A stretch of 64,000 nucleotides of DNA from Candidatus Pacebacteria bacterium UBA6180 (GCA_002422165.1 DITQ01000006.1:25384-89383); one strand, 5' to 3'. Shown: positions 17,964 to 64,000, numbered from the stretch's first letter. The notes: a model not told the origin generated them from the sequence alone. Made by a program: numbers and translations.

Positions 17964-18007
17964 CGTGGCTAGTCCCCGGAGAGGACAGGTGCTAAAATAA
18001 TAAAGTT

Positions 18008-19421: not shown

Positions 19422-19423
19422 AT

Positions 19424-21576: not shown

Positions 21577-21594
21577 ATTCTTTTTTGTTTATTA

Positions 21595-23764: not shown

Positions 23765-23766
23765 AA

Positions 23767-38057: not shown

Positions 38058-38181
38058 TTCAATCTCTATTCTACACCATTTGCACCAACTACTTTTGACC
38101 GAGCTTCGCGAGGGAATGTCCGAAGTGGAGACGAAGGACGTGCCTTGCAAAAAAATGTGGTCCGAAATACAATCAAGCTGC

Positions 38182-41943: not shown

Positions 41944-42509
41944 ACTTGTTCGATCTTTCTAATTAAGTCTGACTCATCTAAAAACAAATTTAACCAAGGA
42001 GTTATTTGTCTGTCCCCCAGTTGCTTGGCTTTGACATCTGTCCAACTTAGCCAAACATAATTCTCTACTTCGTCTGGGTTTAGATCAATTTTTAATTTAA
42101 CAAAGGCTTTGTCGTCCAAAACAGTCACAAAAAAATGATCGAACTCGTTTTCGGCAAAACCATTTTCGCATGCCACCTGATAATCCAAAACAGCCACCTC
42201 TTCAAGCAGCCAGTTTTCTTGCCAATCGACGCCCAGCTCTTCCTTCGCTCGACGCTTTACGCAAGCGACGTGAGTTTCTTCGGGGATTAAATTGGCGCAA
42301 AGAGTGTTGGCCCATTGCCCAGCACCAACAATCTTTTTACCACTTCGCTGCTGAAGCAAGAGCTTGAGAGAACCATCACTTGAGCGATGAAACAAAAACC
42401 AAGACACAGCCTGGTGTTTTTGACCTGAGCCGCGATGTGCAGAGATGAGATCGACGTGTCCAATCACCTCGTCTCTTTCGTTAACTAAATTTACTTGACG
42501 CATAAGCAA
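41931..42509 (-). CDS. idi: isopentenyl-diphosphate delta-isomerase, type 1 (Nudix fold)
   Basis: HQAVSWFLFHRSSDGSLKLLLQQRSGKKIVGAGQWANTLCANL parallels E. coli Idi [37 protein letters not shown]. Includes the catalytic Cys context. Confidence 0.75.
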   Translation of the reverse strand: MLMRQVNLVNERDEVIGHVDLISAHRGSGQKHQAVSWFLFHRSSDGSLKLLLQQRSGKKIVGAGQWANTLCANLIPEETHVACVKRRAKEELGVDWQENWLLEEVAVLDYQVACENGFAENEFDHFFVTVLDDKAFVKLKIDLNPDEVENYVWLSWTDVKAKQLGDRQITPWLNLFLDESDLIRKIEQVCKK

Positions 42510-49101: not shown

Positions 49102-49113
49102 CTAGGAAACATT

Positions 49114-49545
49114 TTAAACTAAAGCGTCATCCATTGCTTGATTGGCTAAAGCATCCGCCCGTTTGTTTTCTTCTCTGGGAACATACTTAATCTGCCAAGA
49201 GCAGTGGGGGAGAGCGTCCAACGCTTGCCAGTTTTGTTTGGCTAGATCCAACAGGCGAGCTTCCTTAATCTTCCAGCGCTTATTCATTTGTTCTACAACC
49301 AGCTTAGAGTCGAGGAGAAAAATTAAATCAAATTCCCGACCTTGCTTGGGCAAATAATTCTTCAAAAACTCAAGAGATGCTTGCAGTGCCAAGTATTCAG
49401 CTTCATTATTGGTCTTATGACCCAAAAAGTGAGATGTTTTGGAAATTTCCCGACCTTGCTCATCGCAGACATAAATCCCTGCTCCAGCTGGTCCGGGGTT
49501 GCCTCTCGCCCCACCGTCAGTATAAATCGATATTTTTTTCCGCAT
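49114..49545 (-). CDS. rnhA: ribonuclease HI
   Basis: ISIYTDGGARGNPGPAGAGIYV and TNNEAEYLALQASLEF carry the catalytic D/E residues of RNase H. Confidence 0.85.
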   Translation of the reverse strand: MRKKISIYTDGGARGNPGPAGAGIYVCDEQGREISKTSHFLGHKTNNEAEYLALQASLEFLKNYLPKQGREFDLIFLLDSKLVVEQMNKRWKIKEARLLDLAKQNWQALDALPHCSWQIKYVPREENKRADALANQAMDDALV

Positions 49546-49580
49546 ATTTACCGCTTTATTAACGCAAGCTCAAGAGGGGG

Positions 49581-50036
49581 TTATTTTTTTAACCGGATTA
49601 ATAAAACCCGCTCATCATCGCGATCCTCAGAAACACTCTCCACTTCATTTAAGTCGTCTTGCTCGATAAGCATACTGTGCACCAGATATCGCTCATAGGA
49701 ATTAAGACCTCTCAACTCTTCCGTCTCTCCGGTTTCGACAACGCGACGAGCTAAATCTAAAGCCTCTTCCTTAAGCTTATTCTCGGTTGCTCCTCTATAA
49801 TCATTAATGTCCAACATAATTCGTTTGTCTTTATAATCCTCCTTAAAAGACAGCTTTGTTAAAAGCTCAATTGCCTCTAGTGTTTCACCATAATTACCTA
49901 TCAAAAGTGCTGCGTCGTCAGATGGGACTGAAATCATTACCCTGAGGCGTTCATTGGTTTCCTGCAAAACAATCTCAAATTCATCATCAACTCCGAGATG
50001 TTTGATTAGTTTTTCCAAATATTCTTGAATTTTCAT
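49581..50036 (-). CDS. jag: Jag/KhpB-like RNA-binding protein (KH + R3H domains)
   Basis: R3H region LNSYERYLVHSMLIEQDDL. Position immediately downstream of yidC, as in the conserved rnpA-yidD-yidC-jag cluster. Confidence 0.7.
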   Translation of the reverse strand: MKIQEYLEKLIKHLGVDDEFEIVLQETNERLRVMISVPSDDAALLIGNYGETLEAIELLTKLSFKEDYKDKRIMLDINDYRGATENKLKEEALDLARRVVETGETEELRGLNSYERYLVHSMLIEQDDLNEVESVSEDRDDERVLLIRLKK

Positions 50037-50038
50037 GT

Positions 50039-50995
50039 TTACCTCCTGTTCTTGTTTTTTCTTTTTGACTTGGTGGCTCGCTTATTTTTAGGCTTTATGG
50101 GACTCGTGTTCCCTCCCAACCCTTGTAGTGCTCCAGCTAAAGACTCGCTTTCGCTTTGTTTTGTAAAAAAAGATTTCTTTTTAAGATGAATTTTTTTAGG
50201 AATAAGAGTTAACGTTTTATTGGTATTTTCAGTCAAGAACTTCCCCTTTAGAGGGCCGTAGGCGGCAACATATCTGTTCCAATAAGTTGTTAGTCCGCCC
50301 CAACCAGAAGCAAAATACTGAGTAATCATAGTAACAATTGTTCCAACCACCCAGTACAGAGCAAGCCCTGAGGGAAGTTTCATGGCTATTACGGCAGTCA
50401 TGATGGGCATCAGAAAAACCATCTGCTGCTGCATGGTGACAGCCATCTCAGCAATATCTTCCTCTTTACGATTGGCCTCTTGGACAGATTTAGACTTAGA
50501 GTCATTAGGAACGATGTCTCTGGTTTGAGTAGCAGGCAAAATCATTAAAGACAGTAAAAACTGAGTGATTCCTGCAATTATTGGCAAAACGTAAGTTTGA
50601 TCAAACTGACTTAAGTTAACCCAGAGGAAATGAAGGTTGAGCGTACCTCCATCTTCGTTAAAAAGAGCGATAATGCTCTGATAGAGAACAATTAAAATAA
50701 AAAGCTGCAGAAGTTGAGGTAGACAGCCGGCTAAAGGATTTATGTTATAACTCTTATAGAGAGCCGCTTGAGCCAACGCTAGTGCCTGTTTGTCTTTACC
50801 ATGTTTAAGTTTTAATTTTTTAATCTCTGGCTGGAGCTCTTGAATTTTTTTACTTGACTTAATGCTGGGCAGTGTTAATGGTAAAAGCACCAGGCGGATT
50901 AGAATTGTAAAAACAATAATTGTAACCCCCAGGTTGCCAAAGATGGAGTAAAGAAAAATTAAAATCGCTTGAAAGAAATTGGTGAATAAGTCCAT
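50039..50995 (-). CDS. yidC: membrane protein insertase YidC (short Gram-positive-type)
   Basis: MDLFTNFFQAILIFLYSIFGNLGVTIIVFTILIRL and GCLPQLLQLFILIVLYQ (compare GCLPMLIQMPIF). Start trimmed from the ORF track to avoid a 125-nt overlap with yidD. Confidence 0.85.
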   Translation of the reverse strand: MDLFTNFFQAILIFLYSIFGNLGVTIIVFTILIRLVLLPLTLPSIKSSKKIQELQPEIKKLKLKHGKDKQALALAQAALYKSYNINPLAGCLPQLLQLFILIVLYQSIIALFNEDGGTLNLHFLWVNLSQFDQTYVLPIIAGITQFLLSLMILPATQTRDIVPNDSKSKSVQEANRKEEDIAEMAVTMQQQMVFLMPIMTAVIAMKLPSGLALYWVVGTIVTMITQYFASGWGGLTTYWNRYVAAYGPLKGKFLTENTNKTLTLIPKKIHLKKKSFFTKQSESESLAGALQGLGGNTSPIKPKNKRATKSKRKNKNRR

Positions 50996-51002
50996 AGTGT
51001 GT

Positions 51003-51200
51003 TTATTTGCAATGCAAGACCCTCCATAAACCTCGCAACAACCCGACAATTGTACCATTTTTTTTGATTTGCAAGGCGGTATATTCGCTGCAACTAGGAT
51101 TTTGATGACAGGCCGGACTATAACCAAACAAAGAAAACAACAAGTGGTGCTTAAAGCTATTTAAAAACTGATAAAAATTACCTGGAGATTTCATTTTCAA
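51003..51200 (-). CDS. yidD: membrane protein insertion efficiency factor YidD
   Basis: LFGYSPACHQNPSCSEYTALQIKKNGTIVGLLRGLWRVLHC matches the YidD C...C.Y...G...G......R..RC pattern. Confidence 0.7.
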   Translation of the reverse strand: MKMKSPGNFYQFLNSFKHHLLFSLFGYSPACHQNPSCSEYTALQIKKNGTIVGLLRGLWRVLHCK

Positions 51201-51546
51201 TTTTTTGCAACAAACGATTAAAGTCTTTTTCCAAATTAATAACCTCAGTGCCTGTATTAAAATCTCTCTTTAAAACAATCACTAAATCAATTTTTTTCTC
51301 AAGCGAAAATGCTTTACTTAAGATTGCTTTCTCCAAAAAAGAGTAGAGAAGACGACGATAAAAATTTCTTTTACTGGCTTTTTTAAAAATAGTTTTCGGA
51401 ACCAAGCAGCTGGCGAGCAATTGTTGATCGTTGGGACGAAAATAGGCTAACAAAGAGTTAGAACTAGCAAATTTCGAACTCTCTCTACTAAAAATTGCTG
51501 AATTTTTCTCCAGAGCGAGATTAAGGCGGTTTTTTTTGGCTATCAT
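51178..51546 (-). CDS. rnpA: ribonuclease P protein component
   Basis: Basic 122-aa protein with KKNRLNL...FSRE...KRNFYRRLL, located between rpmH and yidD. Confidence 0.75.
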   Translation of the reverse strand: MIAKKNRLNLALEKNSAIFSRESSKFASSNSLLAYFRPNDQQLLASCLVPKTIFKKASKRNFYRRLLYSFLEKAILSKAFSLEKKIDLVIVLKRDFNTGTEVINLEKDFNRLLQKIENEISR

Positions 51547-51563
51547 TTAAATTATGACGAGTT

Positions 51564-51710
51564 TTACCAGTGCTTGGCCACCGCTAGCTTCTTGCGGTTT
51601 TTAGCACGACGTCTTTTGATAACAACTTGACCGGTAATGGTTTTCATTCTCTGTAAAAAACCGTGCATTCTCATGCGTTTTTTCTTCTTAGGATTCCATG
51701 TTCTTTTCAT
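51564..51710 (-). CDS. rpmH: 50S ribosomal protein L34 (below the ORF-track length cutoff)
   Basis: Manual translation of the reverse strand gives [48 protein letters not shown] (48 aa). Canonical position upstream of rnpA. Confidence 0.9.
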
Positions 51711-51737
51711 AGACTAGGGATTATAACACGCCAAACC

Positions 51738-52847
51738 TCAACTGTTAACTCTAAAAGGCATAGCTATATGGAAGTAGTCCTTGGTTTTTTTATCTCTAAA
51801 CATGGCTGGTTTCAGACTCTCGTTCATCGAAAACTCCAAAAGCTCTGGTTTGGTGGCGACGATAAAATCGACCAAATAATTAACATTAAAAGCAATCTCT
51901 CCGGTTTCCTTGGTTTTATTATCAATATCTATTTCACTAGAGTACTCTCCAAGAGAAGCAGACTGAGAATTAATCAACATTTTATCCTGCTCAACCCTAA
52001 ACTTAACAATATTTGAAGCATCTCTAGAAAAAATGGATGCTCTTTTAAGCTCGGTTAAAAATTCTTCACTATCAAATTCGATTTTAACCGTGAAACTTGG
52101 TGGGATAATTTTTTCATAAGGAGGAAAATCACCCTCAATCAAACGAACATACATCTCCACGTGAGCAAATTTAAAAAGAAGTTGCTTTAATTCATCCGAA
52201 ACAAAAATATCAATCAGCTCTGCCTCAGCTTGCTTAGCTATTCTATTTAGCTCCCCAAGAGCCTTGGCAGGAATCAAAACCGTTCTTTCTTGCTCTAAAA
52301 CAATATCTTTAAACAAAAGACTGCTGAGACGAAAGCCGTCTGTAGAAACAACCTCCAGACCATCTTTCTTAAAATTAAATAAAATCGAAGTTAAAACCGG
52401 TCTCGTCTGATCGGAGCTAGCACAAAAAGATACCAGGCTCTGAATTTTCTCCAAACTAGAAAGACTGATTGTCAAAGAATCTTCTTTTAGTACTGGAAAT
52501 TCTGGAAACTCATCGCTCCTCTGACAAGTCAGCTTACTAAGCGTTTTGCCCTGACTGACAACTAGAGAGTTTTCTTGTAGCTCTATATCTATTTTGCCAG
52601 CCATCAGCGAATTAATAAGGTTTCTAAACAATTCTCCATTTATAATCAGCTCTCCTTCTACTTCAACCTCTGCCATTAATTCTGTTTTGACACCCAAATA
52701 AAGATCTGTGGCTGACAGAACGACCTTGTTGTCTTTAGCTTTAATAAGTATAGAAGACAAAACAGCTATTTGAGGTTTGCTGGGAATAACCTTTTGCAAA
52801 TGATTGAGTGAGTTTTTTAAGTTTTCCGATAGAATTCTGAGTTTCAT
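51738..52847 (-). CDS. dnaN: DNA polymerase III subunit beta
   Basis: MKLRILSENLKNSLNHLQKVIPSK...LSSILIKAKDNKVVLSATDLYLGV. 369 aa. Immediately downstream of dnaA. Confidence 0.9.
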   Translation of the reverse strand: MKLRILSENLKNSLNHLQKVIPSKPQIAVLSSILIKAKDNKVVLSATDLYLGVKTELMAEVEVEGELIINGELFRNLINSLMAGKIDIELQENSLVVSQGKTLSKLTCQRSDEFPEFPVLKEDSLTISLSSLEKIQSLVSFCASSDQTRPVLTSILFNFKKDGLEVVSTDGFRLSSLLFKDIVLEQERTVLIPAKALGELNRIAKQAEAELIDIFVSDELKQLLFKFAHVEMYVRLIEGDFPPYEKIIPPSFTVKIEFDSEEFLTELKRASIFSRDASNIVKFRVEQDKMLINSQSASLGEYSSEIDIDNKTKETGEIAFNVNYLVDFIVATKPELLEFSMNESLKPAMFRDKKTKDYFHIAMPFRVNS

Positions 52848-53154
52848 ATATTTCTTTAATTAATTATATCTTTTTAGTAGTTGTAGTAGTAGGGGTTGTG
52901 TAAAAGTTGACATTTTGTTTATTCTAATCTTAAACGTAGTCAGTGTTTGTTGTTTATAAAAGGCGGTTTTTTGTTGATTATTTTGTTAATTATTGTTAAT
53001 TGTCGTTCATAAAATTAAAACCTTTTGAACAGTCCTATAATGTTTTTACGCTATTGTTAACAAGGTTTTAACTCTTTATTCACAGGTTTTTCCACATTTG
53101 TGAAAAAACACCCCGCTGAAGGACTACAATGGGCAAAAATAACCCAAGCATCAA
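52848..53154. promoter_or_regulatory. dnaA-dnaN intergenic oriC candidate: AT-rich unwinding region plus DnaA-box cluster
   Basis: DnaA-box-like 9-mers ttattcaca (53076-84), ttttccaca (53088-96) and inverted tgtgaaaaa (53099-107). Upstream AT-rich stretch with repeated ttgttaattattgttaattgt (about 52900-53030). Confidence 0.55.
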
Positions 53155-54648
53155 TTAATTTGAAATAGCCATTAAAGACATTTTCATCGCTGAAACATCT
53201 TGTTGGATATTATAGTCTAAAATAATTTCCTGCTCTATTTTTTTAACAGCATGAATAACGCTACTATGGTCTCTTCCGGAGAACCACTGACCAATTTCCT
53301 CGAGAGGGATTTGCAACTCATTGCGCAATAAAAACATAGCTACATGGCGAGCTCTAACAAGATCCTTGCTTCTTCTTTTACCGCGAACGGCGCTCTGCTT
53401 GATTCGATAATGGTTAGCTACTGTTTTGATAATGTCTTGAGGTTTGGCGCGGATAATCTTCTGTTGGTTTTGGCGCATTTCGCCCTGGAGAATTTTATCA
53501 ATCAGTGTCGAATCTAGACTTAAGCCCTGAAGTTCGACTCCAGACCTGATTTTTTTAATGATACCCTCGATTCTCCTGGCACTGTCAACTTGAGAAGCAA
53601 TTTTCTGTGCCAACTCGATAGGAATGTTTAGCTTACTTGCCTGAGCTTTGAGTAGGAAAATGGCGGTGCGCAGTTCGAAGGTGGGCTGCTGAATATCAAT
53701 CATTAGGCCGGCTTCAAAACGAGAGCGAAGACGGTCTTCTAGGAGGCTAATTTCTTGAGGGGGGCGATCAGAAGTGAGGATAATTTGAGAATTGATAGAG
53801 GTTAGAGCATTGAAGGTGTGAAAAAATTCTTCTTGAACCGAAGTTTTGCCAGCAATAAACTGAATGTCGTCGAGCAGTAGGAGTTTGGTTTTGCGGTATT
53901 TGTTTTTGAGCTGTAGGGTGTTGTGGCTTTTAATAGCCCTAACTATTTCATTTGTAAATTGTTCTCCAGAGGCATAGATTATTTCTGTTTCTGGGTTGCT
54001 GCTTAGGATGTGGTTGGCGACGGCGTGAATTAAGTGAGTCTTGCCAACCCCAACCCCACCATAGAGAAAAAGGGGGTTGTAGCTGGTGCCAGGATTGTTG
54101 GCAACGGCTGTTGCTGCTGCATGAGCCATTTCGTTGCTCGAGGACACGGCAAAACTTTTAAAGGTGTAGTCTTCACGCAAGCCAATTTGCTGAATCCTGG
54201 TTTTGAGGCGATCTACAGTATTACTATTAATGTTAGCTTTAGAAAACAACTCTTCTACAGTAGGAGAGCTGGAGGTTCCAGATTCTGGAAAGCTTTTATT
54301 GTCAGAAAGAGCTCTCTTGAGCTCGCCATAATTTTGATGATTACTGCGAATACTTCCTTGATTTAAGTCGGAGACGACAAACTCTATTTCTAAAGGCTTG
54401 TTGATGTATTTTTCAAGAGAAGTTTTAATTTGTCCATACAAATTAACCTTGAGGTTGGTGACGTGAAAGGCGGTCATGCAGTTGATGGTGGCAACAGCTT
54501 TTTGATCGTCGACAACTCTAATGGCACTAAGCGGACTAGGGGCGATCCAGGTATTAAAAAAAGCAGGGCTCAAGCTAGATTCTAAGTCAGACTTGGCCAT
54601 TTGCCAGATCTGTTTAATGGTTTCAGAGTCGTAGACTTGTTCCGACAT
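53155..54648 (-). CDS. dnaA: chromosomal replication initiator protein DnaA
   Basis: Walker A LFLYGGVGVGKTHLIHAV, sensor motifs, C-terminal DnaA-box-binding helix-turn-helix RARHVAMFLLRNEL...SGRDHSSVIHAVKKIE. Confidence 0.95.
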   Translation of the reverse strand: MSEQVYDSETIKQIWQMAKSDLESSLSPAFFNTWIAPSPLSAIRVVDDQKAVATINCMTAFHVTNLKVNLYGQIKTSLEKYINKPLEIEFVVSDLNQGSIRSNHQNYGELKRALSDNKSFPESGTSSSPTVEELFSKANINSNTVDRLKTRIQQIGLREDYTFKSFAVSSSNEMAHAAATAVANNPGTSYNPLFLYGGVGVGKTHLIHAVANHILSSNPETEIIYASGEQFTNEIVRAIKSHNTLQLKNKYRKTKLLLLDDIQFIAGKTSVQEEFFHTFNALTSINSQIILTSDRPPQEISLLEDRLRSRFEAGLMIDIQQPTFELRTAIFLLKAQASKLNIPIELAQKIASQVDSARRIEGIIKKIRSGVELQGLSLDSTLIDKILQGEMRQNQQKIIRAKPQDIIKTVANHYRIKQSAVRGKRRSKDLVRARHVAMFLLRNELQIPLEEIGQWFSGRDHSSVIHAVKKIEQEIILDYNIQQDVSAMKMSLMAISN

Positions 54649-54747
54649 ACGTTTGTTCCAATCTCTAGGGCAGTAAAAATAAAAAAATCAAAAGAATAGA
54701 ATTAGCACTCTTATACACAAAGTTTTCCACAATTGGCAAGGGGCAAT
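54649..54747. promoter_or_regulatory. dnaA upstream region with two DnaA boxes
   Basis: ttatacaca (54711-19) and ttttccaca (54723-31), both within 1 mismatch of TTATCCACA. Confidence 0.45.
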
Positions 54748-56919
54748 TTACTTTGGAGGCTTATAGTCGTTAATGCTGTAAACCCCATGCTTATCTGGTG
54801 TAAGTTTTTCGTTTTCAGTCTCGTCTCCAAAAACTGTTTTTACCTTTTGAGCTAAAAAGCCATCCTTTTTAATGGCTTCTTCAGCCTTCTGATCGGCGTC
54901 TTTGAGAGGGTCTTGCTCAACCTTTATGTCGGGGGCTTTCCAGGCGAGGTTGTTTTCTGAATCAGCGTTGACACTCGCGGTATTTTTAAACTCTTGATTG
55001 TTGTCAAGTCGTTGTTTTCGAAGTTGGCGTGCTTTTTTGTAGTTTTCAAAGCTGTCGCCGCGAGGACTCGAGGCGGCGCTAAGCGATTTTTTGATTTCCT
55101 TATCGTCTTTTTTGCGCAACATTTCTTCCGGGTTGGTGGTGATAACTTGATGTTCTTCGTCTGAAGCAATCACTCTCAGTGCCACGTGGTTTTGTCCAGC
55201 AAAAAAGATGCCTTCTCCCACATCAGAAGAAACAAGCAACTGTCGCTCACCCTCGGACAAATAGAAGGTTTGGGTTAAAATGGGGATGGAAGCGGTAGAC
55301 TGCTTCATCAGGAATTGAATAGAGGCGTTGGAAACAATGGCTTTGCCGTAATCGTTATGTAAGAAATCTTCCACGTCCTGAGTGATAGTGGTAATTCCAA
55401 GATAGTATTTGCGCGACCGTTTAACCATGGAGTAGACAAAAGCAGCGCTGTCTGGATGCATCATAAAATACCAAGCCTCATCAATAATGAGAATACGGCG
55501 CCTAAGGTTCTTTTTAACTCTTGTCCAGATAAAATCAAGGATAACATACATGGCGATAGGTCGCAGCGACTCCTCCATTTCTTTGACCGAAAAAACCGTG
55601 AACGGAGACTTGATGTCTATGTTGGATGCCTGGTCAAAAATTCCACGATAAGAACCAGTGATAAATTTTTCTAAACGTGCAGCGATGTCGTCGGCATATT
55701 CTTGCTCCATACCAATGAGCGCCTTATAGAGGTCTTCCATGAGTGGGGGAGTGTTTTTTTGAGTGGCTGGGTCGGGAGTGATGCCTTTGGCTTTGTAGGC
55801 GGCAATAATGGAACGATCGAGCAAAGCCTCTTGTTGTGGGGTCATTTCGCCCAGCATGACCTTAAGCAGGCCGTGAACGGAGAGAATTTTTTGACCCAAC
55901 TCATTTTCACCCTCTTCGTAAAGGTTGGACAGATCGAAAGGGTTTATTTTCGCTTTGGAGCCAAAAGTAAAATTGATGTATTCTCCGCCAACCATTTTGC
56001 ACAGTTCCTCATACTCATGTTCTGGGTCGAGAACGATCACCTCAGCATCAAACATTAGTTGACGCAAAATTTCGAGCTTAACGGTGTAGGATTTACCAGC
56101 ACCAGACTTGGCGAATATAACCATGTTGGCGTTTTCCATTTTGAAGCGATCGAAAATAACCAGCGAATCGTTGTGTTCGTTGATCCCATAAACTATGCCT
56201 GTTTCCATGGTTAGCTCAGAAGATGTGAACGGAAAGGTGGTGGCCAAAGAAGTGGTATCCATGTTTCTGGTGACAGAAAGCTTGTCGACGCCCATGGGGA
56301 GAGTGGTTTTAAAGCCTTCGTCCATTTGTAGGGCGGATTTTTTGGAAACGATCATTAGGGCGCCGAGAGTGCTTTGAATGCTTTTAGTGATTTTGTCGAG
56401 CATTTCTTTGCTGTCGGCACGAACGGTAACATAAAGACCGAATTGGAAAAAGCGCTCTGAGCCAGCGGCCAATTGTTCGCGCATGGCTCTGGCATCACTC
56501 AGTTTGATTTCAGTATTAATGTTGCTGATTTTTCCTGAGCGAATGTCTGAAGTAATTTCTGCCTCCATCTCAGTGATTTTGCGCTTAAGGTTGTCAAGAA
56601 TATCTCCGGTGTCAGAGGGAAAAATAAACATTGAAATATTGGCTTGATGAGGGTAATTGATTAGTGGTGATAGCCAGTTGGCGGGAACGGCGCGAGGGTA
56701 GCCAGCAATAAACAGCGTTCTGGTGTAGGTGGAGTTGATTTTTTGGTAAGTGAAATCCACCTCTATTGCCTCTGGAGCAATAATGTCTTGGATGGTTACT
56801 AGGCCGCGCGAAAACTCGCTTAATTTTTCCTGAGTGTATTGATCGGCGTCAATTTTTTGTTGAGTTGCCGGATCGCTAGTGGTCTTTTTACCAAATAGAT
56901 TAAACATCTTTTGCATCAT
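54748..56919 (-). CDS. virB4: VirB4/TraE-family type IV secretion ATPase (Gram-positive-type architecture)
   Basis: N-region TRTLFIAGYPRAVPANWLSPLINYP...ISMFIFP, Walker A VIFAKSGAGKSYTVK, Walker B/DEAW motif ILIIDEAWYFM, C-terminal acidic extension. Confidence 0.8.
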   Translation of the reverse strand: MMQKMFNLFGKKTTSDPATQQKIDADQYTQEKLSEFSRGLVTIQDIIAPEAIEVDFTYQKINSTYTRTLFIAGYPRAVPANWLSPLINYPHQANISMFIFPSDTGDILDNLKRKITEMEAEITSDIRSGKISNINTEIKLSDARAMREQLAAGSERFFQFGLYVTVRADSKEMLDKITKSIQSTLGALMIVSKKSALQMDEGFKTTLPMGVDKLSVTRNMDTTSLATTFPFTSSELTMETGIVYGINEHNDSLVIFDRFKMENANMVIFAKSGAGKSYTVKLEILRQLMFDAEVIVLDPEHEYEELCKMVGGEYINFTFGSKAKINPFDLSNLYEEGENELGQKILSVHGLLKVMLGEMTPQQEALLDRSIIAAYKAKGITPDPATQKNTPPLMEDLYKALIGMEQEYADDIAARLEKFITGSYRGIFDQASNIDIKSPFTVFSVKEMEESLRPIAMYVILDFIWTRVKKNLRRRILIIDEAWYFMMHPDSAAFVYSMVKRSRKYYLGITTITQDVEDFLHNDYGKAIVSNASIQFLMKQSTASIPILTQTFYLSEGERQLLVSSDVGEGIFFAGQNHVALRVIASDEEHQVITTNPEEMLRKKDDKEIKKSLSAASSPRGDSFENYKKARQLRKQRLDNNQEFKNTASVNADSENNLAWKAPDIKVEQDPLKDADQKAEEAIKKDGFLAQKVKTVFGDETENEKLTPDKHGVYSINDYKPPK

Positions 56920-58348
56920 CCTGAATTTTTAATGGGGCCGCTTCCTCAGCAAAATTTACAGAAGGTTCTTGTGGGCTGCTGGGGGCGGCCTGACCTGCTC
57001 CAGCAGCTAAAAAAGAATTGTCTATGATTGGTGCAGTTTCAACAGTGGGAGTGTTAGGATTCACAGGAGCTTCTTGAGGAGCTGACGCAGCAGCAGCAGG
57101 TTGACTGGAAAGGGGAGTGTCTGGTTCGCTTGGGGCGCTGTCTGGTTGTAAGACTGGGCCGCCTATGAAGCTGTCCTTTTCAGCAAAAGACTGATTGGCG
57201 GGATTGGCTCCAGCGAGCAAGGTCGGATCGAGACTGAGGTTTAGATCGGGATTTGGGTCGGCTGTCACCGGCTCTGCAGGCGTGTTCTCTGCCGCGACTT
57301 CTGTCACGGGAGATTCTGCGCCTGGAAATCCTGCTGGTGGTGGAAACATCTGTGTTGGCGCCGATTCAAGCGTGGGCGACTGCGAAGACTCGGTGGCCTG
57401 AGGCTGTTCTTGAACAAACTGAACGTCTGTGAGCGTGGGCTGCTCTTGAATCGTGGGCTCGACGGGAGAACCGACGGGGCTGGTGGGGTCTTCTGCAGTG
57501 CTAAGTGTGTCGACAGGAGCGGCGGCTTGAGAAGTCTCGGAAGGAGCCATCTGACTCTGATTATCAACGAGCTGGCCTGGTTCGTCAGCAACCTGAGTCT
57601 GTCCTCCAGATGCTTGGTTTGCCGCTGCTTGATTTTGCATAATGTTGTTTAGTTGCATAAATTTTCCTCCAAAACTTGCCCGCACAAGTGGGGTAGTGTA
57701 GTTTTCGCTGCTACTAATTTCTTGTCCCTCAGCAGCCTCAGGGTTGTAATTGATATAGAAGTTTTGAATAATTTCTTGGGTAGTGAGCTGTCTGGCAAAA
57801 AGCCCAAGTCGATTAAATTGTGAGACCAGGTGGTCGCGACGAGGCTCGAGAACGTTAATGGCTTTTTCGAGCAAAATACTTTTTTCAATAAGTTCGACAT
57901 TAAAAGCTCCTTGGCCGGGTAAAACACTCGATGGAGTGATGAGCCCCATTTCGCTTGGGCTGGCAGAAGCGATGATAAAAAAGCGCTTTTGTAGGACGTT
58001 TCTTTCTTTGATCAGCCCCTCTACAAAGCTGCGGTATTTTTTAATCAGGGTTGCCCTGCGCTCTGAGCTTGCTTTGGCGATTTGTTCGTCAAGAAGCCTT
58101 AAATATTTGGTGGCGTCTTTAGTTTGTGATTGAATATTAATCTGAATGGGGTAGTTGAGAGAGTTGAGCACGCTGCCGTAGGTAAAAATAACCGCATCCT
58201 GTTCTTGTTCGGCCAGCAAGCTAAAATTCATGGTTCCTACCTGAAGAATGATGGCAGCAGAACCATCTTTAAGCAGGACCATGTCGTTGACAATGTCATA
58301 AACATCAAGAAATTCTTGAGTGGTAGAACTAATCACTTTGTCGCTCAT
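56900..58348 (-). CDS. VirB4 N-terminal (CagE/TrbE/VirB-type) domain-like protein with ~280-aa Pro/Ala/Ser/Gln-rich disordered tail
   Basis: First about 200 aa FLDVYDIVNDMVLLKDGSAAIILQVGTMNFSLL...IFTYGSVLNSLNYPIQINIQ resemble the VirB4 N-domain (compare DHIVLLEDGSIMSIARIDGVAFELEE in Agrobacterium VirB4). Overlaps the virB4 ATPase ORF by 20 nt in a different frame. Confidence 0.4.
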   Translation of the reverse strand: MSDKVISSTTQEFLDVYDIVNDMVLLKDGSAAIILQVGTMNFSLLAEQEQDAVIFTYGSVLNSLNYPIQINIQSQTKDATKYLRLLDEQIAKASSERRATLIKKYRSFVEGLIKERNVLQKRFFIIASASPSEMGLITPSSVLPGQGAFNVELIEKSILLEKAINVLEPRRDHLVSQFNRLGLFARQLTTQEIIQNFYINYNPEAAEGQEISSSENYTTPLVRASFGGKFMQLNNIMQNQAAANQASGGQTQVADEPGQLVDNQSQMAPSETSQAAAPVDTLSTAEDPTSPVGSPVEPTIQEQPTLTDVQFVQEQPQATESSQSPTLESAPTQMFPPPAGFPGAESPVTEVAAENTPAEPVTADPNPDLNLSLDPTLLAGANPANQSFAEKDSFIGGPVLQPDSAPSEPDTPLSSQPAAAASAPQEAPVNPNTPTVETAPIIDNSFLAAGAGQAAPSSPQEPSVNFAEEAAPLKIQDDAKDV

Positions 58349-58380
58349 TTTTTTTGATCCAAGCTACAGTTTACTAAAAA

Positions 58381-59232
58381 TCAGAGGTTGATTACAAGGG
58401 GCTGGAGGATTTGCCCGCTTAGCTCAAGCTCGGAGGCGGGAAAGATGACTCCGTCCTTTTCCGCAACAATCTGGTAAAAACCATCCTCCAGAGGATTGCC
58501 AAGCACGAAGTTGCCATTAGCATCACTTTTGCCAACTCGCAAGCTTTGTCCACCACGGTCTTTAGCCTCAACTAGAACATTGGCAACAGCAATGCCGTTT
58601 TGATCGACGGTTGTTCCAAAAATTTGGTTTGGCAAGTGCTCCTCAGTGATAGTTTCTCGCGGAGCCTGGAGACTGCGCACCCTGGTTTTAAGATCCGGCT
58701 TGGTTGGTTTTTGAGCTTCAATCTTAATATCTGTGTCGACAACATTTACTTCGTCGAAAGTTTCCAAAAGAGCATTGATTTTCTGATTTTCCTCTAGATC
58801 AAAATCGTCAGTCGCTTCTGCGGAAGGAATGCTTTTTAAGTATTCAAAAATGCGCTGCTTTCGCGCGGGATTAAGATTGACGTTGGGGGCAAAGTAATCG
58901 CTTTGGTTGCTGGTTACCCGATAATTGAAAAAGTCAGGAATGCGACTGCTTTTTTTCCAAAAAAACTTTGTGGGCTTGTATATTTTATTGAAAAAAGTCT
59001 TAATCCAGTGGTCGAGAGGACGCTCCTCAATAGGGACGAAGGCAACCATTGCTCCAAGTCCCACGGTGAAAAAAATTAGAGGCCACTTGACGATGCCGAT
59101 GAGATTGGTTTTAAAAATTACAAAACCAAGCACCACTGCCACTGCCATTTCAGCAAACTGCTTGAGCGTCATCTGGCCAATGAGATGAAACTTGTAGTTG
59201 GTAATATCCTGTGGAATTGGGTGTTGTTTCAT
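58381..59232 (-). CDS. PrgI/VirB3-like two-TM protein with extended C-terminal beta-sandwich (carboxypeptidase-regulatory-like) domain
   Basis: N-terminus PIPQDITNYKFHLIGQMTLKQFAEMAVAVVLGFVIF...WPLIFFTVGLGAMVAFVP fits the PrgI-family pattern (P.D.T.Y.EK.FFGLT.RQ). C-terminus GTTVDQNGIAVANVLVEAKD...GNFVLG. Confidence 0.45.
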   Translation of the reverse strand: MKQHPIPQDITNYKFHLIGQMTLKQFAEMAVAVVLGFVIFKTNLIGIVKWPLIFFTVGLGAMVAFVPIEERPLDHWIKTFFNKIYKPTKFFWKKSSRIPDFFNYRVTSNQSDYFAPNVNLNPARKQRIFEYLKSIPSAEATDDFDLEENQKINALLETFDEVNVVDTDIKIEAQKPTKPDLKTRVRSLQAPRETITEEHLPNQIFGTTVDQNGIAVANVLVEAKDRGGQSLRVGKSDANGNFVLGNPLEDGFYQIVAEKDGVIFPASELELSGQILQPLVINL

Positions 59233-59321
59233 GCTGTAAGTTTATTTTAGCAGATTTTCAACTCACATTCCCTGCGGCTGTAGCGCTGATAGAAACAGCA
59301 AGAAAAATTTTAGAGGGCAAT

Positions 59322-60344
59322 TTATTTTTCTTTAGAGACTGCCACGGCTGGAGTAATAAGTGAAGCCTGAATATTAAGGCCAGCAGAATTGGTTAGTTTG
59401 CCGCTAAAGCGATAAAAGGGGTAAGCAAGCTTCAGCTTGTCGTCGTACCTGTATTCAATCTCTGCTGAGTAAAGATTGGCTTCGTTAATCCAGTTTAAAT
59501 CGATTATTTCAACAATCTGGCTTTCTGCGCTTATGACGGAAACAATGCCATTTTTAATATTGTTTATTGCTTGATTGATGTTGAGCGGGGGAAGTTTTAA
59601 AGAAGGCTCAAATTTGTGAAAAAAGTTTTTAAAAACCACTCTTTCCAAGTCATATTTATTGTTTATTTTGCAAATAAACGGGTACTCTGATTCGTTGGTA
59701 TAGAAAACTGGAAATCCATCTAATTCATAAGTAAGAGGTATTTGTAAAATGTGAGCTTCGTTTTCAACAGTAATTTCTTGTTCTTCCTCGTTGTTTAGAA
59801 ATTCTATAGATTTCTCCTGAGGAATTAACGCCAGACCTGCGCTGTATTTTGTGTAAAAATTTAAACATGTTTGTATGGCCTCTGGCTTGAGAATGAATAG
59901 GTCGTTTTTTTCAAGATCTGACACTTCGACATAGGTGTAGTTGTTTTCGTAAGTGCTTTTGGCCAGCTGAGCGTTGTTTCCAAGCCAATAATTGAGAACG
60001 CTTTGATGAGGAATCATGTCTTTTTCATTAATGATTTGATTGGCGATTATCTCAGCAGTTGTCGATTTGTCGCTTGCAGCATAAATCTTAAAAAATTCTG
60101 GCAAAACAGGGCTTACTCCAGAAAAACTTATTTTTTTAAAAGTGCTTTGAGTTTGGTCGTAGTTGGCCGTGAAAGAATCATTTTGGAAAACAATCTTTTC
60201 CTCTTCAGGCGTAATGAGGGTTAAAATTGAAGAAATAATTAGAGCTAAGCTGGTAAAAATGAGCAGGTATTGCCAAAAGCTCAGTCTAAGCCTGAATGTT
60301 CTTTGGGTTTTGATGGTTTTTGTTTGCATATTTATTCGTAACAA
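59322..60344 (-). CDS. bitopic membrane protein in T4SS module (possible VirB8-like component)
   Basis: Single N-terminal TM WQYLLIFTSLALIISSILTLI followed by a 290-aa extracytoplasmic domain. Assignment by topology and position only. Confidence 0.3.
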   Translation of the reverse strand: MLRINMQTKTIKTQRTFRLRLSFWQYLLIFTSLALIISSILTLITPEEEKIVFQNDSFTANYDQTQSTFKKISFSGVSPVLPEFFKIYAASDKSTTAEIIANQIINEKDMIPHQSVLNYWLGNNAQLAKSTYENNYTYVEVSDLEKNDLFILKPEAIQTCLNFYTKYSAGLALIPQEKSIEFLNNEEEQEITVENEAHILQIPLTYELDGFPVFYTNESEYPFICKINNKYDLERVVFKNFFHKFEPSLKLPPLNINQAINNIKNGIVSVISAESQIVEIIDLNWINEANLYSAEIEYRYDDKLKLAYPFYRFSGKLTNSAGLNIQASLITPAVAVSKEK

Positions 60345-63300
60345 GTGGTGACACCGCTACCCTCAACGGGAGGATGTCTCCCATTATTGTCCTCTGGCAC
60401 CACGGTTTCAATAATGGATGGGCCTGGGTGGTTGAGTAGGGAAAACACTCCGCCGTGAGCCGCTCCATAATGTAGGTGGTTTCCAGAAGAAAACCCCCTG
60501 TTTCCGCTCAGGCCAATTAAATAGCCAGCTTCAACCTGAATACAGCTGCCAGGACTACTTATGCTTGGATTTGGGTCCTGAAAGTGGGCAAAGATTAGTT
60601 TCTGTTGGCCTCCATCACCATTAAAAGTCAGCGTGAAATAGCAGCCAAAACCGCTGTTAGAACAATTGACATGACAAAGCTGCCCATCATAGGGGGTAAA
60701 AACTGGGTTGCCATATAGTGCTGGTCCAAGACTTGTGCCTATATCATAGGCATCGTGGTAATAGGGGTTCTTCGGGTTTGGTCCATGGGAAAAATTGCCA
60801 TCGTATGGCAGTTGTGAGACGGTGCCTGTCATCGGCCAACAACCAGCATCCCCGCTACACTCCCCCAAACACACTCTGGCTGTAGTAATAACGTTGTCCG
60901 CGCCTTGCTGAAAAGCATTCTGGTAATAGAAATTAACTTCAATGGCATTGCTGATGGCGGTGTGGTTGTAATCGCTGCTTAAGCCATCCAGAGTATAGGT
61001 AAAGGTTAAGCTGTTGCCAGCCAAAATGACGATTTCTCCTCCGGTTGCTGCTGGAGACACTTGGGCTGATGGGAGATCACCTTCTGTTGGCAGCGGAGTG
61101 GGAGAGGCGCTAAGAGGCGGACTACTGGCTCCGCCCTGCTCATCAATAATCTTGCGAAAATATTCAAACTCTAGGTTTCTCTGACTTGGAATGATGGGCG
61201 GAGCGCGGCCTGCTTTTTCCCAGCCAGACCTGCTTTGTTTAAAAGTGGTCTCGTCACTAATGTTGATGATTTGCAAATCGAAATCTTCTTTTGGAGCGAT
61301 GGTGATCGTGTACTCAATTGACAGTGGAAAGCTTGGCTTGTCGCATTTTGACCCATCGTTTTCTGCAAGCAAGCAGCCTTTTGTGATTTTGGCGGTTTTT
61401 TTGACCTCTGCGTATTTGGAGGTTTTTTCAACCGTGTTGATAATTTCAGATTCGCTGAGGGGAAAATTGGTCAGAAAAGCTGAGTTGAGATTGGCACGAT
61501 AAAAATAACCAAGAAGGAAGATGGTTCCTGAAGCAATAACGACCGTCTGTCCCGCAATAACCATGGCAGGCGTAGCAATTTGGCTAACCAAGCTTTGAGC
61601 GGGAGGGATAGTTTGGGCTGCAGGAATGGCTGTGCTGTTGGGCGCAAATTGGTTAAAAGCTTCGTGACCGCTAAGGCTGAGGTTTTCAGCAGCACCCCCT
61701 CGACTAGAAAGTTCTTTGTTGAGGGAGGAGATTTCTCTCGCTCCGCCCAAGCCCTTGTAGATCATTGCTCCGGCAGCAAGTGCCGCCATAAGCGCTGCAA
61801 TTAGCGGTCCAAGAGTGGCCATTAGAAGAGCGAAAAGAATATAGGGCCAGTATTTTTTGATAAATTCAATGATTTGGCTGAGAACTTCATTTTCAAGAAA
61901 ACGCAGTGTGCCCGTAGCGTCAGCAGCCTTGGCCGCTTCCCAAGAAGCAAAAGCTGCTTCTGAGGCCCCGGCTGTGGCGGCGCCAGCGGTGGCGCGAATA
62001 CCCCACTTCAAGGCTTCTCTGGTAAAGCGGTTGTCAACCAAATCATCTCCACTCATTCCGCCAGGAATCTGAGTGAAAGCCTGCTGAAGCAAGCCGTCTC
62101 CCTGAGTGGCGTATGTTGGGTCGAGATAACGATTTTGACTAGGCGCAAAGGCCCTTTCGCCCAGAACTTGATTTCCCCAGATCAAAAATTCGTCAAGAGG
62201 ACTGATTTGGGGGACGATTTGTTGAGAGAAAACTTCAATGCTGTATTCAGCAGTCACGTAGCCAGGCATGTAAAACTCGAAGTAAGTTTTGAGGACAGCC
62301 TGTTGTTCTGGAGCTTCCATTTTGGCCAGTTCTGTTTCCAGCTGTTTTCCAATTAGGTCTTGTTCTTGTTTGAGAAAGCCAGCCAATTCGGGATTGTTTT
62401 TGACAGCGTCTGAGGTGGGATCGGCCAAGGCCTGTGCGACAGTTTTGCTACCAAAGTTTTTGTTTAGCTGGCGCATGTAAAGCTGTTTTGAGGTAAGAGG
62501 CTTGCCGTGCTTTGCTGCCAGATTAATTGCCTCTTCTGGCGTGAGTTTTTCTTGAGCGAATTCGGCACGAATCTCTTTGGCCCAGATGGCGCGTTTGCGC
62601 TTCCAGTAGAAGACAATGATGTTGGCCAAAGCCTCTCTGTTGTCTTTAATTTGCTTGGGAGTTAAATCAGTGCCAAAAAAGTTTTTAAGCCTTTGCCAAT
62701 CAATTTTTTGTGGGTCAGCGATTAAATATTCTGGAGGCAAGCCTTGCTGGATGTAGACGTCCGTCAAAGATTTGACGTTTTGTAGAATGCGCTCTCTAAT
62801 TTCTGGGTGTAGGTTCTGGATTGTTTCATCGAGGTGCTGGCTTAGCATCTTGTCCAGCTGCTCTTCGCTGCCGGCGACGCCCAGCTGGCTTTCGACAAGC
62901 CTGGCGAAATCAGCGTCATTTCTGCCTCGCTCGAAGACCTCCTCAGCACTCCTGGTGTCGACGACGTTGATTTGATTTTTTGTGCGCCCACCGAGCTGTT
63001 CGCCCTTGAGTTCTTGCCGCTGGTTTTTATCCAGCTCTTGCTTGAAGGCGACCGCGTCCTTGTCCTCGACCAGTTGACTGACGGCTCTATTGAGCAGTCC
63101 CATGCCGCGAATGTCGATCAGTAGGCCAAGGGCGCTTTTGTTGGCGAAGTTGACCCGCGCTGAAGTGTCCTGAACAAATCGGTCTAGACTGAATTCACCA
63201 CTTAGTATCAGAGTCTCGACTTGCGCGAAGGCGCGGTCCATGAGTTGTTGGCGGATGTCAAGCGGCAACTGATCAAAGGTCACTCGCGTGCCTGGCGACA

Positions 63301-64000
63301 AGCCCATTTGGGTTAGTGAGGCGTCGTTGAAGTAGCGACTCAAGGCCTGATTGATGGTGATGATCGAGAGCGACTGCAGGTAAAGCTTGGCTTGCGGGTC
63401 AAGCTCGGAGAGTTTGAGGGGTTGTCCGGCGGCTTGAGGTTGTTGGGGCGGCTGCTGCTGATCTGGCCGCCGCCGACTTTCGTCAGGCTGCTGCTGGGGA
63501 GGAGGGGTGTCTCCATCGCGACCAGCACTTGTGTCTTGGGCGGTTCTATCTGCTCCGAACGGAAAAGGCAAGATTCCTCCTCCTCTTCCGCCGGAAGTAG
63601 GCTGAGAGGTTTTTTCTGTTTCTTCGACCTCTGCTTCGGCAAATTCTTCTTCCAGCTCAAGAATATCAACCACCTCATCAATGCGCCTAATAATGTGCTG
63701 GCGCATGTTGAAGTCCTCCATCCGCAGAAGATCTTTTATTTCAATCTCATCTTTGCTGCTTGGGGTGACTTGAAAAATTTCAAACAAACTTTTGAGGCGA
63801 TTAAGCTGATTGATTTGTTCGAGAGTTAAGCCGAACTGGTTTGGCACTGGTCGGTAAGTTTGCTCGACAAAGTGCACAAGATCACACATGAACAAATATG
63901 GCTCAGAGTTAAAATCTGGAATTTTACCATTTTGATCTGGAACAGAGGCAGCAATGTCTGCAGAAGTGCTGAGATCAAACTCTTCAGCTGCAAAGCCAGC
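60332..64000 (-). CDS. giant T4SS-associated membrane protein with C-terminal M23 (LytM-type) peptidase domain; 5' end beyond window
   Basis: C-terminal YYHDAYDIGTSLGPALYGNPVFTPYDG (HxxxD) and GLSGNRGFSSGNHLHYG (HxH) give M23 metallopeptidase motifs. Central helices YWPYILFALLMATLGPLIAALMAALAAGAMIY and AMVIAGQTVVIASGTIFLLGYFY. P/Q-rich segment PPPQQQPDESRRRPDQQQPPQQPQ. The ORF-track start at 63895 is a TTG, and the frame stays open to position 64000. Confidence 0.6.
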   Translation of the reverse strand, partial: AGFAAEEFDLSTSADIAASVPDQNGKIPDFNSEPYLFMCDLVHFVEQTYRPVPNQFGLTLEQINQLNRLKSLFEIFQVTPSSKDEIEIKDLLRMEDFNMRQHIIRRIDEVVDILELEEEFAEAEVEETEKTSQPTSGGRGGGILPFPFGADRTAQDTSAGRDGDTPPPQQQPDESRRRPDQQQPPQQPQAAGQPLKLSELDPQAKLYLQSLSIITINQALSRYFNDASLTQMGLSPGTRVTFDQLPLDIRQQLMDRAFAQVETLILSGEFSLDRFVQDTSARVNFANKSALGLLIDIRGMGLLNRAVSQLVEDKDAVAFKQELDKNQRQELKGEQLGGRTKNQINVVDTRSAEEVFERGRNDADFARLVESQLGVAGSEEQLDKMLSQHLDETIQNLHPEIRERILQNVKSLTDVYIQQGLPPEYLIADPQKIDWQRLKNFFGTDLTPKQIKDNREALANIIVFYWKRKRAIWAKEIRAEFAQEKLTPEEAINLAAKHGKPLTSKQLYMRQLNKNFGSKTVAQALADPTSDAVKNNPELAGFLKQEQDLIGKQLETELAKMEAPEQQAVLKTYFEFYMPGYVTAEYSIEVFSQQIVPQISPLDEFLIWGNQVLGERAFAPSQNRYLDPTYATQGDGLLQQAFTQIPGGMSGDDLVDNRFTREALKWGIRATAGAATAGASEAAFASWEAAKAADATGTLRFLENEVLSQIIEFIKKYWPYILFALLMATLGPLIAALMAALAAGAMIYKGLGGAREISSLNKELSSRGGAAENLSLSGHEAFNQFAPNSTAIPAAQTIPPAQSLVSQIATPAMVIAGQTVVIASGTIFLLGYFYRANLNSAFLTNFPLSESEIINTVEKTSKYAEVKKTAKITKGCLLAENDGSKCDKPSFPLSIEYTITIAPKEDFDLQIINISDETTFKQSRSGWEKAGRAPPIIPSQRNLEFEYFRKIIDEQGGASSPPLSASPTPLPTEGDLPSAQVSPAATGGEIVILAGNSLTFTYTLDGLSSDYNHTAISNAIEVNFYYQNAFQQGADNVITTARVCLGECSGDAGCWPMTGTVSQLPYDGNFSHGPNPKNPYYHDAYDIGTSLGPALYGNPVFTPYDGQLCHVNCSNSGFGCYFTLTFNGDGGQQKLIFAHFQDPNPSISSPGSCIQVEAGYLIGLSGNRGFSSGNHLHYGAAHGGVFSLLNHPGPSIIETVVPEDNNGRHPPVEGSGVTTCYE

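Follow-up and report, generated by a model that had tools for sequence, protein, structure and literature searches.

A large part of the diversity of bacteria belongs to the Patescibacteria, and the described systems closest to the one reported here are the type IV secretion systems (T4SSs) of this group. In one genetically tractable species, Southlakia epibionticum, the T4SS encoded by SEML1_0006-0019 is essential for epibiotic growth, as is its pilin array, and the system has no recognisable relaxase or coupling protein (Wang et al. 2023, Cell, PMC10633639); no earlier T4SS was known to be indispensable to the cell that carries it. Here we analyse 64,000 nucleotides of the genome of Candidatus Pacebacteria bacterium UBA6180 (GCA_002422165.1 DITQ01000006.1:25384-89383; the window), in which a set of T4SS-like genes lies directly upstream of dnaA, together with a further 15.6 kb beyond the right window end. 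This additional sequence was read from a Logan contig that is 100% identical to window positions 48381-64000 and runs on past the right window end. We find that the region very probably makes up the proximal half of a patescibacterial T4SS that is chromosomal and non-conjugative, a type of system present as a core feature almost throughout the Patescibacteria, a group that also goes by the name candidate phyla radiation (CPR).

A survey of 3,035 Patescibacteria genomes detected VirB4 in 2,417 of them, and these proteins form a monophyletic clade nested in MPF_FATA (Quinonero-Coronel et al. 2025, Microb Genom, PMC12102498). In the same survey TrsD was the most abundant associated component, PrgI/VirB3 was present, M23-containing hydrolases occurred, and 441 VirB2 arrays were found, each with 2-11 divergent PF18895 pilins; relaxases were found in only 103 of the genomes. 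The genes dnaA, dnaN, rnpA and rpmH were enriched beside virB4, notably in Paceibacteria and Microgenomatia, which the authors read as a gene-dosage effect (PMC12102498). A 2025 FEMS review repeats this picture of TrsD, pilin arrays, a missing relaxase and proximity to dnaA (PMC12857230), a 2024 PNAS perspective mentions effector delivery or nucleotide acquisition (PMC11665869), and tubular structures, possibly T4SS pili, have been described at the parasite-host interface of an organism that feeds on host RNA (bioRxiv 10.64898/2026.06.21.733656). The phenomenon is already known, having been described between 2023 and 2025, and our locus adds no new kind of system. A preliminary description of the window had called such systems poorly characterised, which holds for their function but not for their genomic pattern, which, proximity to dnaA included, had been published (PMC12102498).

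When set beside the patescibacterial systems, the locus shows nothing that differs categorically. Shared features are a VirB4 whose TrsD-like partner is encoded by a gene of its own, a PrgI/VirB3-like gene, tandem arrays of divergent PF18895 pilins (pairwise identity here has a mean of 30% and a maximum of 52%, against the 25% and 54% reported in PMC12102498), a putative M23-type wall hydrolase, the lack of a relaxase and of a nearby type IV coupling protein (T4CP), and a position near dnaA, dnaN, rnpA and rpmH. A VirB6-like fold is found here, whereas VirB6 is scarce in the survey. For this lineage the locus also adds the exact gene order, a YycH/YycI-like bitopic protein, two Cys-rich pilin-domain proteins and a head-on orientation. 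These additions are modest, as are the extended gene block and the stronger conservation of VirB4 than of DnaA that we describe below.

The MPF_FATA systems of Firmicutes (pGO1 Trs, pCF10 Prg, CTn2/CD1110 and pIP501 Tra) share with the locus a CD1110-type VirB4, TrsD (specific to the pGO1 subclass), PrgI and a membrane-anchored multi-domain wall hydrolase, and likewise have no VirB7/9/10 core and no VirB11. PrgK also carries a LytM/M23-like domain. These systems differ in that they are borne on plasmids or on integrative and conjugative elements (ICEs), with a relaxase, a T4CP and an oriT and without VirB2 pilins, whereas the system described here is chromosomal, is fixed by oriC and includes pilin arrays, and neither a relaxase nor a T4CP is encoded in the 80 kb. 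Likenesses to the T4SSs of Mycoplasma ICEs (VirB4 against the Mbov_0397 model, 272.9 bits; the TrsD-like protein, E 1.3e-5; pilins against Mbov_0395, 29.5 bits) all fall under the curated cut-offs (590 and 40 bits), and the Mycoplasma ICEs are mobile elements. The VirB systems of R388 and Agrobacterium (MPF_T) differ in that no VirB7/9/10, VirB5, VirB11 or VirD4 match was obtained in the window or the 15.6 kb beyond it, where these families were not tested individually, and sequence similarity to them is very low (TrwK, 3.9e-6).

Results

A VirB4 ATPase and its partner genes lie directly upstream of dnaA

Calling of open reading frames (ORFs) in the window placed five of them immediately upstream of dnaA, all on the minus strand and encoding in order a giant membrane protein, a bitopic membrane protein of 335 aa (p335), a PrgI/VirB3-like protein, a TrsD-like protein and VirB4 (Table 1), which is the arrangement given in the preliminary description. 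From 54.7 kb to the right window end the real genes are all on this strand. Downstream of virB4, again on the same strand, come dnaA, dnaN, rpmH, rnpA, yidC and jag/khpB, followed by genes for RNase H and a DUF4012 protein; profile searches recovered every one of the housekeeping neighbours that had been named, from dnaA to yidC.

The product of the gene next to dnaA passes the curated NCBIfam equivalog NF045971, the CD1110 family of Firmicutes, which is its best curated VirB4 model (392.5 bits against a cut-off of 325, over 556 residues). It also matches Pfam PF19044 (P-loop_TraG; E 8e-25) and AAA_10, the VirB4 N-domain family PF03135 (22.3 bits against a cut-off of 21), and the TraC and VirB4_CagE models (1e-34 to 6e-54). 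Its top match in the PDB is 4ag5, the C-terminal domain of Thermoanaerobacter VirB4 (6.4e-49), with TrwK matched at 3.9e-6. A Walker A motif, AKSGAGKS, was found by pattern search, and a Walker B-like stretch, ILIIDEAW, was read from the translation. Close homologues (66-91% identity) all come from metagenome-assembled genomes (MAGs) titled Patescibacteria, Pacebacteria, Woesebacteria or Microgenomates. Judged by these profile and structure matches the ATPase is a genuine VirB4, the signature motor of T4SSs, as had been called.

The gene that overlaps virB4 by 8-20 nt encodes a protein that is similar over its first ~235 aa to the extreme N-terminal domain of VirB4 and whose C-terminal ~245 aa form a low-complexity tail rich in P, Q, A, S and T. 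It matches positions 102-297 of the NCBIfam VirB4_plasma model (E 1.3e-5, far under the cut-off) and NF041427, TrsD/TraD (E 4.6e-5 and 23.3 bits, far under the cut-off of 200), and a precomputed PF26593 TraC-like match is on record; a sequence search of the PDB returned nothing meaningful. These weak matches agree with the VirB4 N-domain-like ORF of the preliminary description, and the position and conservation of the gene (present at 74 of 80 loci) fit a TrsD associated with virB4. A PrgI/VirB3 homologue also adjoins virB4: its protein scores above the PF12666 cut-off and has two N-terminal transmembrane (TM) helices (aa 22-40 and 47-65), in line with the original call, and it carries a C-terminal extension that matches a CarboxypepD_reg-like beta-sandwich (PF13620, E 1.3e-6).

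The p335 gene lies in a 340-aa ORF whose start, from the gene call, is most likely at the ATG that yields 335 aa. Fold comparison indicated that the N-terminal TM helix is followed by ~295 aa of tandem alpha/beta domains with a YycH/YycI/PepSY-like fold, and no sequence match was found in Pfam, NCBIfam or the PDB. p335 sits at the VirB8/PrgL position of the module and had been put forward, with a question mark, as VirB8. Its bitopic topology is borne out, but its identity as VirB8 is unsupported, the nearest fold being that of the YycH/YycI/PepSY-type tandem domains.

The giant protein is cut by the window end, with 1187 aa inside the window, and its extent in the identical contig is 1283 aa. 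Just two TM helices (aa 782-800 and 873-891) separate an N-terminal part of ~780 aa, presumably cytoplasmic, from an outer part of ~390 aa that ends in an M23 (LytM-type) domain. The match to the Pfam Peptidase_M23 model is under the cut-off (E 2.4e-5; 24.9 bits against 28.7), and the M23 peptidase 9gy1 of the PDB is matched at 2.6e-5, its catalytic HxxxD/HxH motifs aligning with HDAYD and HLH; the orthologue at a related locus (L013) also matches M23. The earlier recognition of a C-terminal M23 peptidase gains support. The VirB6 role assigned with it does not, as the protein has two TM helices only and no VirB6/TrbL/PrgH match. Because these helices lie in mid-protein and the M23 domain at the end, the giant is a candidate wall hydrolase and not a VirB6-like polytopic channel, and we consider it likely to be the cell-wall hydrolase component of the system, in a VirB1 role.

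The conserved block continues beyond the window

The five genes first described account for no more than the proximal half of a ~20-kb T4SS block, which is conserved and reaches ~10 kb further than had been noted. Beyond the giant there follow, in order, genes for a divergent 1203-aa protein, a 556-aa polytopic protein (P0176), a divergent 290-aa protein, a 968-aa protein and two long Cys-rich pilin-domain proteins. P0176, encoded ~4 kb beyond the window, is a VirB6-like polytopic protein by fold comparison, which alone was informative, since a search of the PDB with its sequence profile found nothing; we regard it as a candidate VirB6-like channel protein. In the two long proteins Cys-rich extracellular N-terminal domains are fused to a C-terminal VirB2-like PF18895 hairpin, an arrangement kept upstream of the block at loci L085 and L086, and these proteins may serve as adhesins or as minor or tip pilins. 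The 1203-aa, 968-aa and 290-aa proteins have no Pfam or NCBIfam match. Stray Walker-A-like strings occur in two of the flanking unknowns, with no support from any P-loop family.

The order of the block in two other genomes is two pilin-domain genes, a gene for a ~930-970-aa protein, a gene for a divergent ~285-aa protein, the VirB6-like gene, one or more variable divergent genes, the giant, a small or bitopic protein, PrgI, TrsD and VirB4. The extended order also recurs at five related loci found by tblastn, and further upstream the relatives carry SpoIID, VanW and a solute-binding protein. The VirB6-like gene and the giant are always separated by one or two divergent genes, encoding 748-1203 aa, with no family match and with low similarity (23-33%) between genomes. 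This position is a variable, cargo-like slot in an otherwise conserved block.

A tandem array of VirB2-like pilin genes lies 13.5 kb from the module

Among uppS, idi and valS, 13.5 kb from the T4SS module, lies a tandem array of VirB2-like pilin genes encoding 113-163 aa each. The preliminary description had this location and its pilin character right; the genes number seven, not six, and five of them score above the Pfam PF18895 cut-off of 26.6 bits. In each product a conserved G-G-D-x-x-K loop is flanked by two TM helices, and an N-terminal signal peptide is clear in four of the seven. The two pilin-domain genes outside the window come in addition to this array. In relatives, tblastn found no pilin homologues within 10 kb of virB4, a search whose sensitivity is limited by the shortness and divergence of these proteins.

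Two further observations concern the array. The pilins weakly match NF045849, the Mbov_0395 family of pilin-like proteins of Mycoplasma ICEs (29.5 bits against a cut-off of 40, for the pilin at 40285-40689), which hints that VirB2-like pilins may be native to part of MPF_FATA and not borrowed from diderm systems. In addition, a gene for an ECF-type sigma factor abuts the first pilin gene and is divergent from the array; its position suggests a possible role as a regulator dedicated to the pilins.

Synteny with dnaA is kept across related genomes

A VirB4 scan with one genome per GTDB species yielded 262 relatives, from which the best 80 loci were kept for synteny counts and searched by tblastn with the window proteins. 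These loci are titled Ca. Pacebacteria, Woesebacteria, Microgenomates or Patescibacteria, and the genome studied here is close to those bearing the first three names. At all 75 of the loci that reach that far, dnaA lies directly downstream of virB4 on the same strand, with gaps mostly of 97-500 nt, so the oriC-adjacent placement whose conservation had been proposed for checking is kept. The conserved order across these 75 relatives is giant-p335-PrgI-TrsD-VirB4-dnaA-dnaN-yidC-jag. Among the 80 loci the TrsD-like gene was found at 74, PrgI and dnaN at 68 each, yidC at 61, the giant at 44 and p335 at 43.

VirB4 is 66-88% identical to its counterparts in the relatives and is closer to the query than DnaA is at 71 of 71 loci, with medians of 80% and 54%, respectively; median identities are 45% for DnaN, 53% for YidC and 58% for the TrsD-like protein. 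Because the synteny with dnaA holds at 75 of 75 loci and VirB4 is more conserved than DnaA, the system is, as far as gene order and identity can tell, a core function that is inherited vertically and strongly constrained, and not a mobile element. The locus displays rigid placement by oriC together with strong conservation in a Pacebacteria/Microgenomates-like lineage.

The module abuts a putative bipartite origin of replication

The two spacers that flank dnaA carry the same pair of DnaA-box-like 9-mers, 12 nt apart (Table 1). The sign of the GC skew changes, with a cumulative minimum at 52-53 kb, in the dnaA-dnaN spacer. In the relatives the motif TTWTNCACA occurs 5.0 times per kb in virB4-dnaA spacers (n=75) and 7.9 times per kb in dnaA-dnaN spacers (n=68), against 0.33 per kb in whole loci, an enrichment of 15-24-fold. 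Because of the box pairs in both spacers, the skew switch and the motif enrichment, the earlier statement that the module abuts oriC is correct. The dnaA-dnaN spacer, with its long AT-rich stretch, is the probable unwinding region of the origin, which looks bipartite, as in Firmicutes, with the virB4-dnaA spacer as its upstream half.

Like dnaA, the T4SS operon is on the minus strand to the right of the skew switch, so that its transcription runs toward oriC and meets the rightward fork head-on. Such an arrangement, in a conserved operon of ~9.4 kb, is out of the ordinary for genes that are strongly conserved and, in the one species tested, essential, and this orientation toward oriC is not discussed in the 2025 survey (PMC12102498). 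The operon also leads into the DnaA-box cluster that forms the upstream part of the putative bipartite origin. It is conceivable, if a long shot, that the placement is functional and not a gene-dosage convenience, in that read-through or transcription-dependent activation of the origin might couple dnaA expression and replication initiation to expression of the host-contact or feeding machine. If this were true, an obligate epibiont would replicate only when equipped to draw nucleic-acid precursors from its host through the T4SS pilus.

Table 1 Position and supporting evidence of the features described (window coordinates unless a locus is named)
Feature	Coordinates	Strand	Evidence or remark
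VirB4 ATPase, 719-723 aa	54748-56919	-	NF045971, PF19044, PF03135, PDB 4ag5, Walker A
TrsD-like protein, 482 aa	56900-58348	-	weak matches to N-terminal part of VirB4_plasma and to TrsD/TraD
PrgI/VirB3-like protein, 283 aa	58381-59232	-	PF12666, 29.1 bits (cut-off 27)
Bitopic membrane protein p335	59322-60329 (ORF to 60344, 340 aa)	-	one N-terminal TM helix
Giant membrane protein	60332-64000, cut by window end	-	full length 1283 aa, start at window-equivalent 64183
Seven tandem VirB2-like pilin genes, 113-163 aa	38182-41208	+	PF18895, E 2e-9 to 2.5e-4
Two long pilin-domain proteins	L083 3-731 and 728-1600, ~14-16 kb past right window end		PF18895
Variable divergent slot	L001 1319-4930, L015 1763-4009, L085 11726-15338, L086 12080-14686	-	
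virB4-dnaA spacer, 99 nt	54649-54747		DnaA-box-like 9-mers at 54711-54719 and 54723-54731
dnaA-dnaN spacer, 307 nt	52848-53154		DnaA-box pair at 53076-53096, long AT-rich stretch
dnaA	53155-54648	-	TIGR00362, 435.8 bits (cut-off 343.9)
dnaN	51738-52847	-	profile search
rpmH	51564-51710	-	profile search
rnpA	51178-51546	-	profile search
yidC	50039-51127	-	profile search
jag/khpB	49581-50036	-	profile search
ECF-type sigma factor gene	37485-38183	-	Sigma70_r2, Sigma70_r4_2, Sigma70_ECF matches

Nature and possible role of the system

These findings support the reading of the region as one half of a chromosomal, non-conjugative patescibacterial T4SS: the system is derived from monoderm (MPF_FATA) conjugation machinery and fixed by a bipartite oriC, with no relaxase or T4CP nearby. 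Several points weigh on the other side. Fold comparisons established no VirB8 equivalent, the TrsD and M23 matches fall under curated cut-offs, and the VirB6-like model is of moderate confidence (pLDDT 68.5, pTM 0.48). The 64 kb and 15.6 kb analysed are all of the genome that was covered, and a distant VirD4-like T4CP may exist; homologues of such proteins are present in most Patescibacteria genomes, mostly far from virB4 (PMC12102498). The loci were picked by VirB4 similarity, which could inflate the contrast between VirB4 and DnaA, although the contrast within genomes is still large. Finally, essentiality has been established only in Saccharimonadia and not in this lineage, and the role of the system has been stated to be "completely unknown" (PMC11665869).

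From the components we infer how such a machine might be assembled, whether it forms a pilus, and what it might carry and in which direction. VirB4 and the separately encoded TrsD-like N-domain would dock on the membrane through the PrgI/VirB3-like protein, and the VirB6-like polytopic protein would supply the membrane channel. The M23 peptidase of the giant could open peptidoglycan locally, either the cell's own or that of the host, and the motor could then polymerise the VirB2-like pilins (the seven-gene array and the two long Cys-rich pilin-domain proteins) into a tube reaching the host bacterium. Under this model the system would be a conduit for interaction with the host and not an apparatus for donating DNA. 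Classical conjugation is unlikely, given that the sequence covered encodes neither a relaxase nor a T4CP, and ComEC-type competence is unlikely because the T4SS stays essential in a viable comEC deletion mutant. The uptake of host macromolecules, as a supply of nucleic acid or nucleotides, seems to us somewhat more likely than effector export; we hold either role only tentatively, and leave the rest of our expectation to other roles. The VirB6-like, YycH/YycI-like and Cys-rich pilin-domain assignments provide usable hypotheses for structural and genetic work.

Export is the alternative that survives best, in the form of an effector-export or contact-dependent delivery T4SS that secretes proteins into or onto the host and imports nothing. 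Most non-conjugative T4SSs export proteins, some of them (Ptl and Brucella VirB) without a T4CP; Wang et al. suggested that the Southlakia system "may instead export proteins" (PMC10633639), and the PNAS perspective notes speculation about effector delivery (PMC11665869). The block also encodes large unannotated proteins, among them the products of the variable 748-1203-aa gene and a ~950-aa protein. Against this, no effector, chaperone or secretion signal was identified, export has no experimental support in any Patescibacterium, and sequence alone cannot separate it from import, so that we hold export to be possible but on the unlikely side.

Improbable, in our assessment, is a competence-type T4SS that takes up DNA for transformation, like Helicobacter ComB or archaeal Ced. 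Those systems are precedents for T4SS-mediated import, VirB4 has weak matches to CedB and CedD, and the locus resembles ComB in having no relaxase or T4CP. In Southlakia, however, competence needs ComEC and type IV pili, and because a comEC deletion mutant is viable while the T4SS is essential, transformation is not what makes the T4SS essential. For Saccharimonadia it is already indicated that the frequency of transformation stays the same on T4SS depletion.

We regard as very improbable that the genes are an integrated conjugative element, or the remnant of one, lying beside dnaA by chance with its relaxase, T4CP and integrase just out of view. VirB4 does score best against families of ICEs and plasmids (CD1110, Mbov_0397 and TraC), and the window does end inside the module. 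When ~55 window ORFs of at least 100 aa, essentially all of those present, were scanned against Pfam, however, none matched a relaxase, T4CP, VirB11, integrase or recombinase family, which bears out the reported lack of integrase, relaxase and VirD4-like genes in the 64 kb. A set of such genes with attachment-site repeats just outside the window had been named as what would indicate a conjugative element; the 15.6 kb beyond the right window end contain no relaxase, T4CP or integrase, and a pattern search found no protein with both a TM helix and a P-loop among the unannotated neighbours. The upstream genes instead encode pilin-domain proteins, unknowns and the VirB6-like protein and, in relatives, SpoIID, VanW and a solute-binding protein. 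There are no att-like flanking direct repeats, short repeats occurring at chance level only, and no compositional break at the module. None of the marks of a conjugative element (a relaxase, a T4CP, or an integrase with att repeats) was found across the 64 kb and 15.6 kb. In place of a patchy distribution, the same gene order stands by dnaA in 75 genomes whose DnaA proteins are only 45-85% identical, and VirB4 is better conserved than DnaA.

The lack of mobility genes and repeats in the 64 kb and 15.6 kb, together with the fixed synteny with dnaA, largely refutes an ICE, and the original proposal of a domesticated, chromosomal T4SS of Gram-positive type gains support from the genuine VirB4, the absence of mobility genes and att repeats, and the synteny in 75 relatives. 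One clue used in that proposal falls away: VirB11 has no match in the window, as reported, but its absence is expected in Gram-positive-type systems and carries no information.

The weakest alternative, that the ATPase is an unrelated FtsK/HerA-type protein and the module no T4SS, was raised at the outset and has almost no probability left, since the overlap of DUF87/HerA and AAA_10 Pfam matches with the P-loop region and the weak matches to the archaeal DNA-import ATPases CedB and CedD are set against VirB4 profile scores above the NF045971 and PF03135 cut-offs, the strong TraC and VirB4_CagE matches, the PDB match to 4ag5, the adjoining PrgI/VirB3-like and TrsD-like genes and the VirB2 pilins, and the VirB4 scores and the 4ag5 match rule it out.

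Other features of the window

The rest of the window is given to housekeeping and envelope biosynthesis, with glycosyltransferases, a mevalonate cluster, an ATP-dependent DNA ligase, recF, pth, ribosomal protein L25 and a few unannotated ORFs. The mevalonate cluster looks complete (18423-25026 and 41266-42509), comprising HMG-CoA reductase, HMG-CoA synthase, thiolase, two GHMP kinases and a decarboxylase; a polyprenyl synthase, idi and uppS accompany it, and its GC content, 0.48-0.51, is above that of its flanks. The DNA ligase is of the archaeal/eukaryal type, and the window also encodes a Fic/DOC protein with a DeoR-like helix-turn-helix (29936-31789 and 33865-34956, respectively, both on the minus strand). 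The sole tRNA gene in the 64 kb is a tRNA-Ile with the anticodon UAU, which is uncommon in bacteria (17890-17964, plus strand).

We also note that dozens of patescibacterial MAG contigs carrying the locus have been deposited as "uncultured Pseudomonadales bacterium", one as "Limisphaerales", and the complete genome CP011212.1 as "candidate division TM6". Such record titles are probably taxonomic mislabels.

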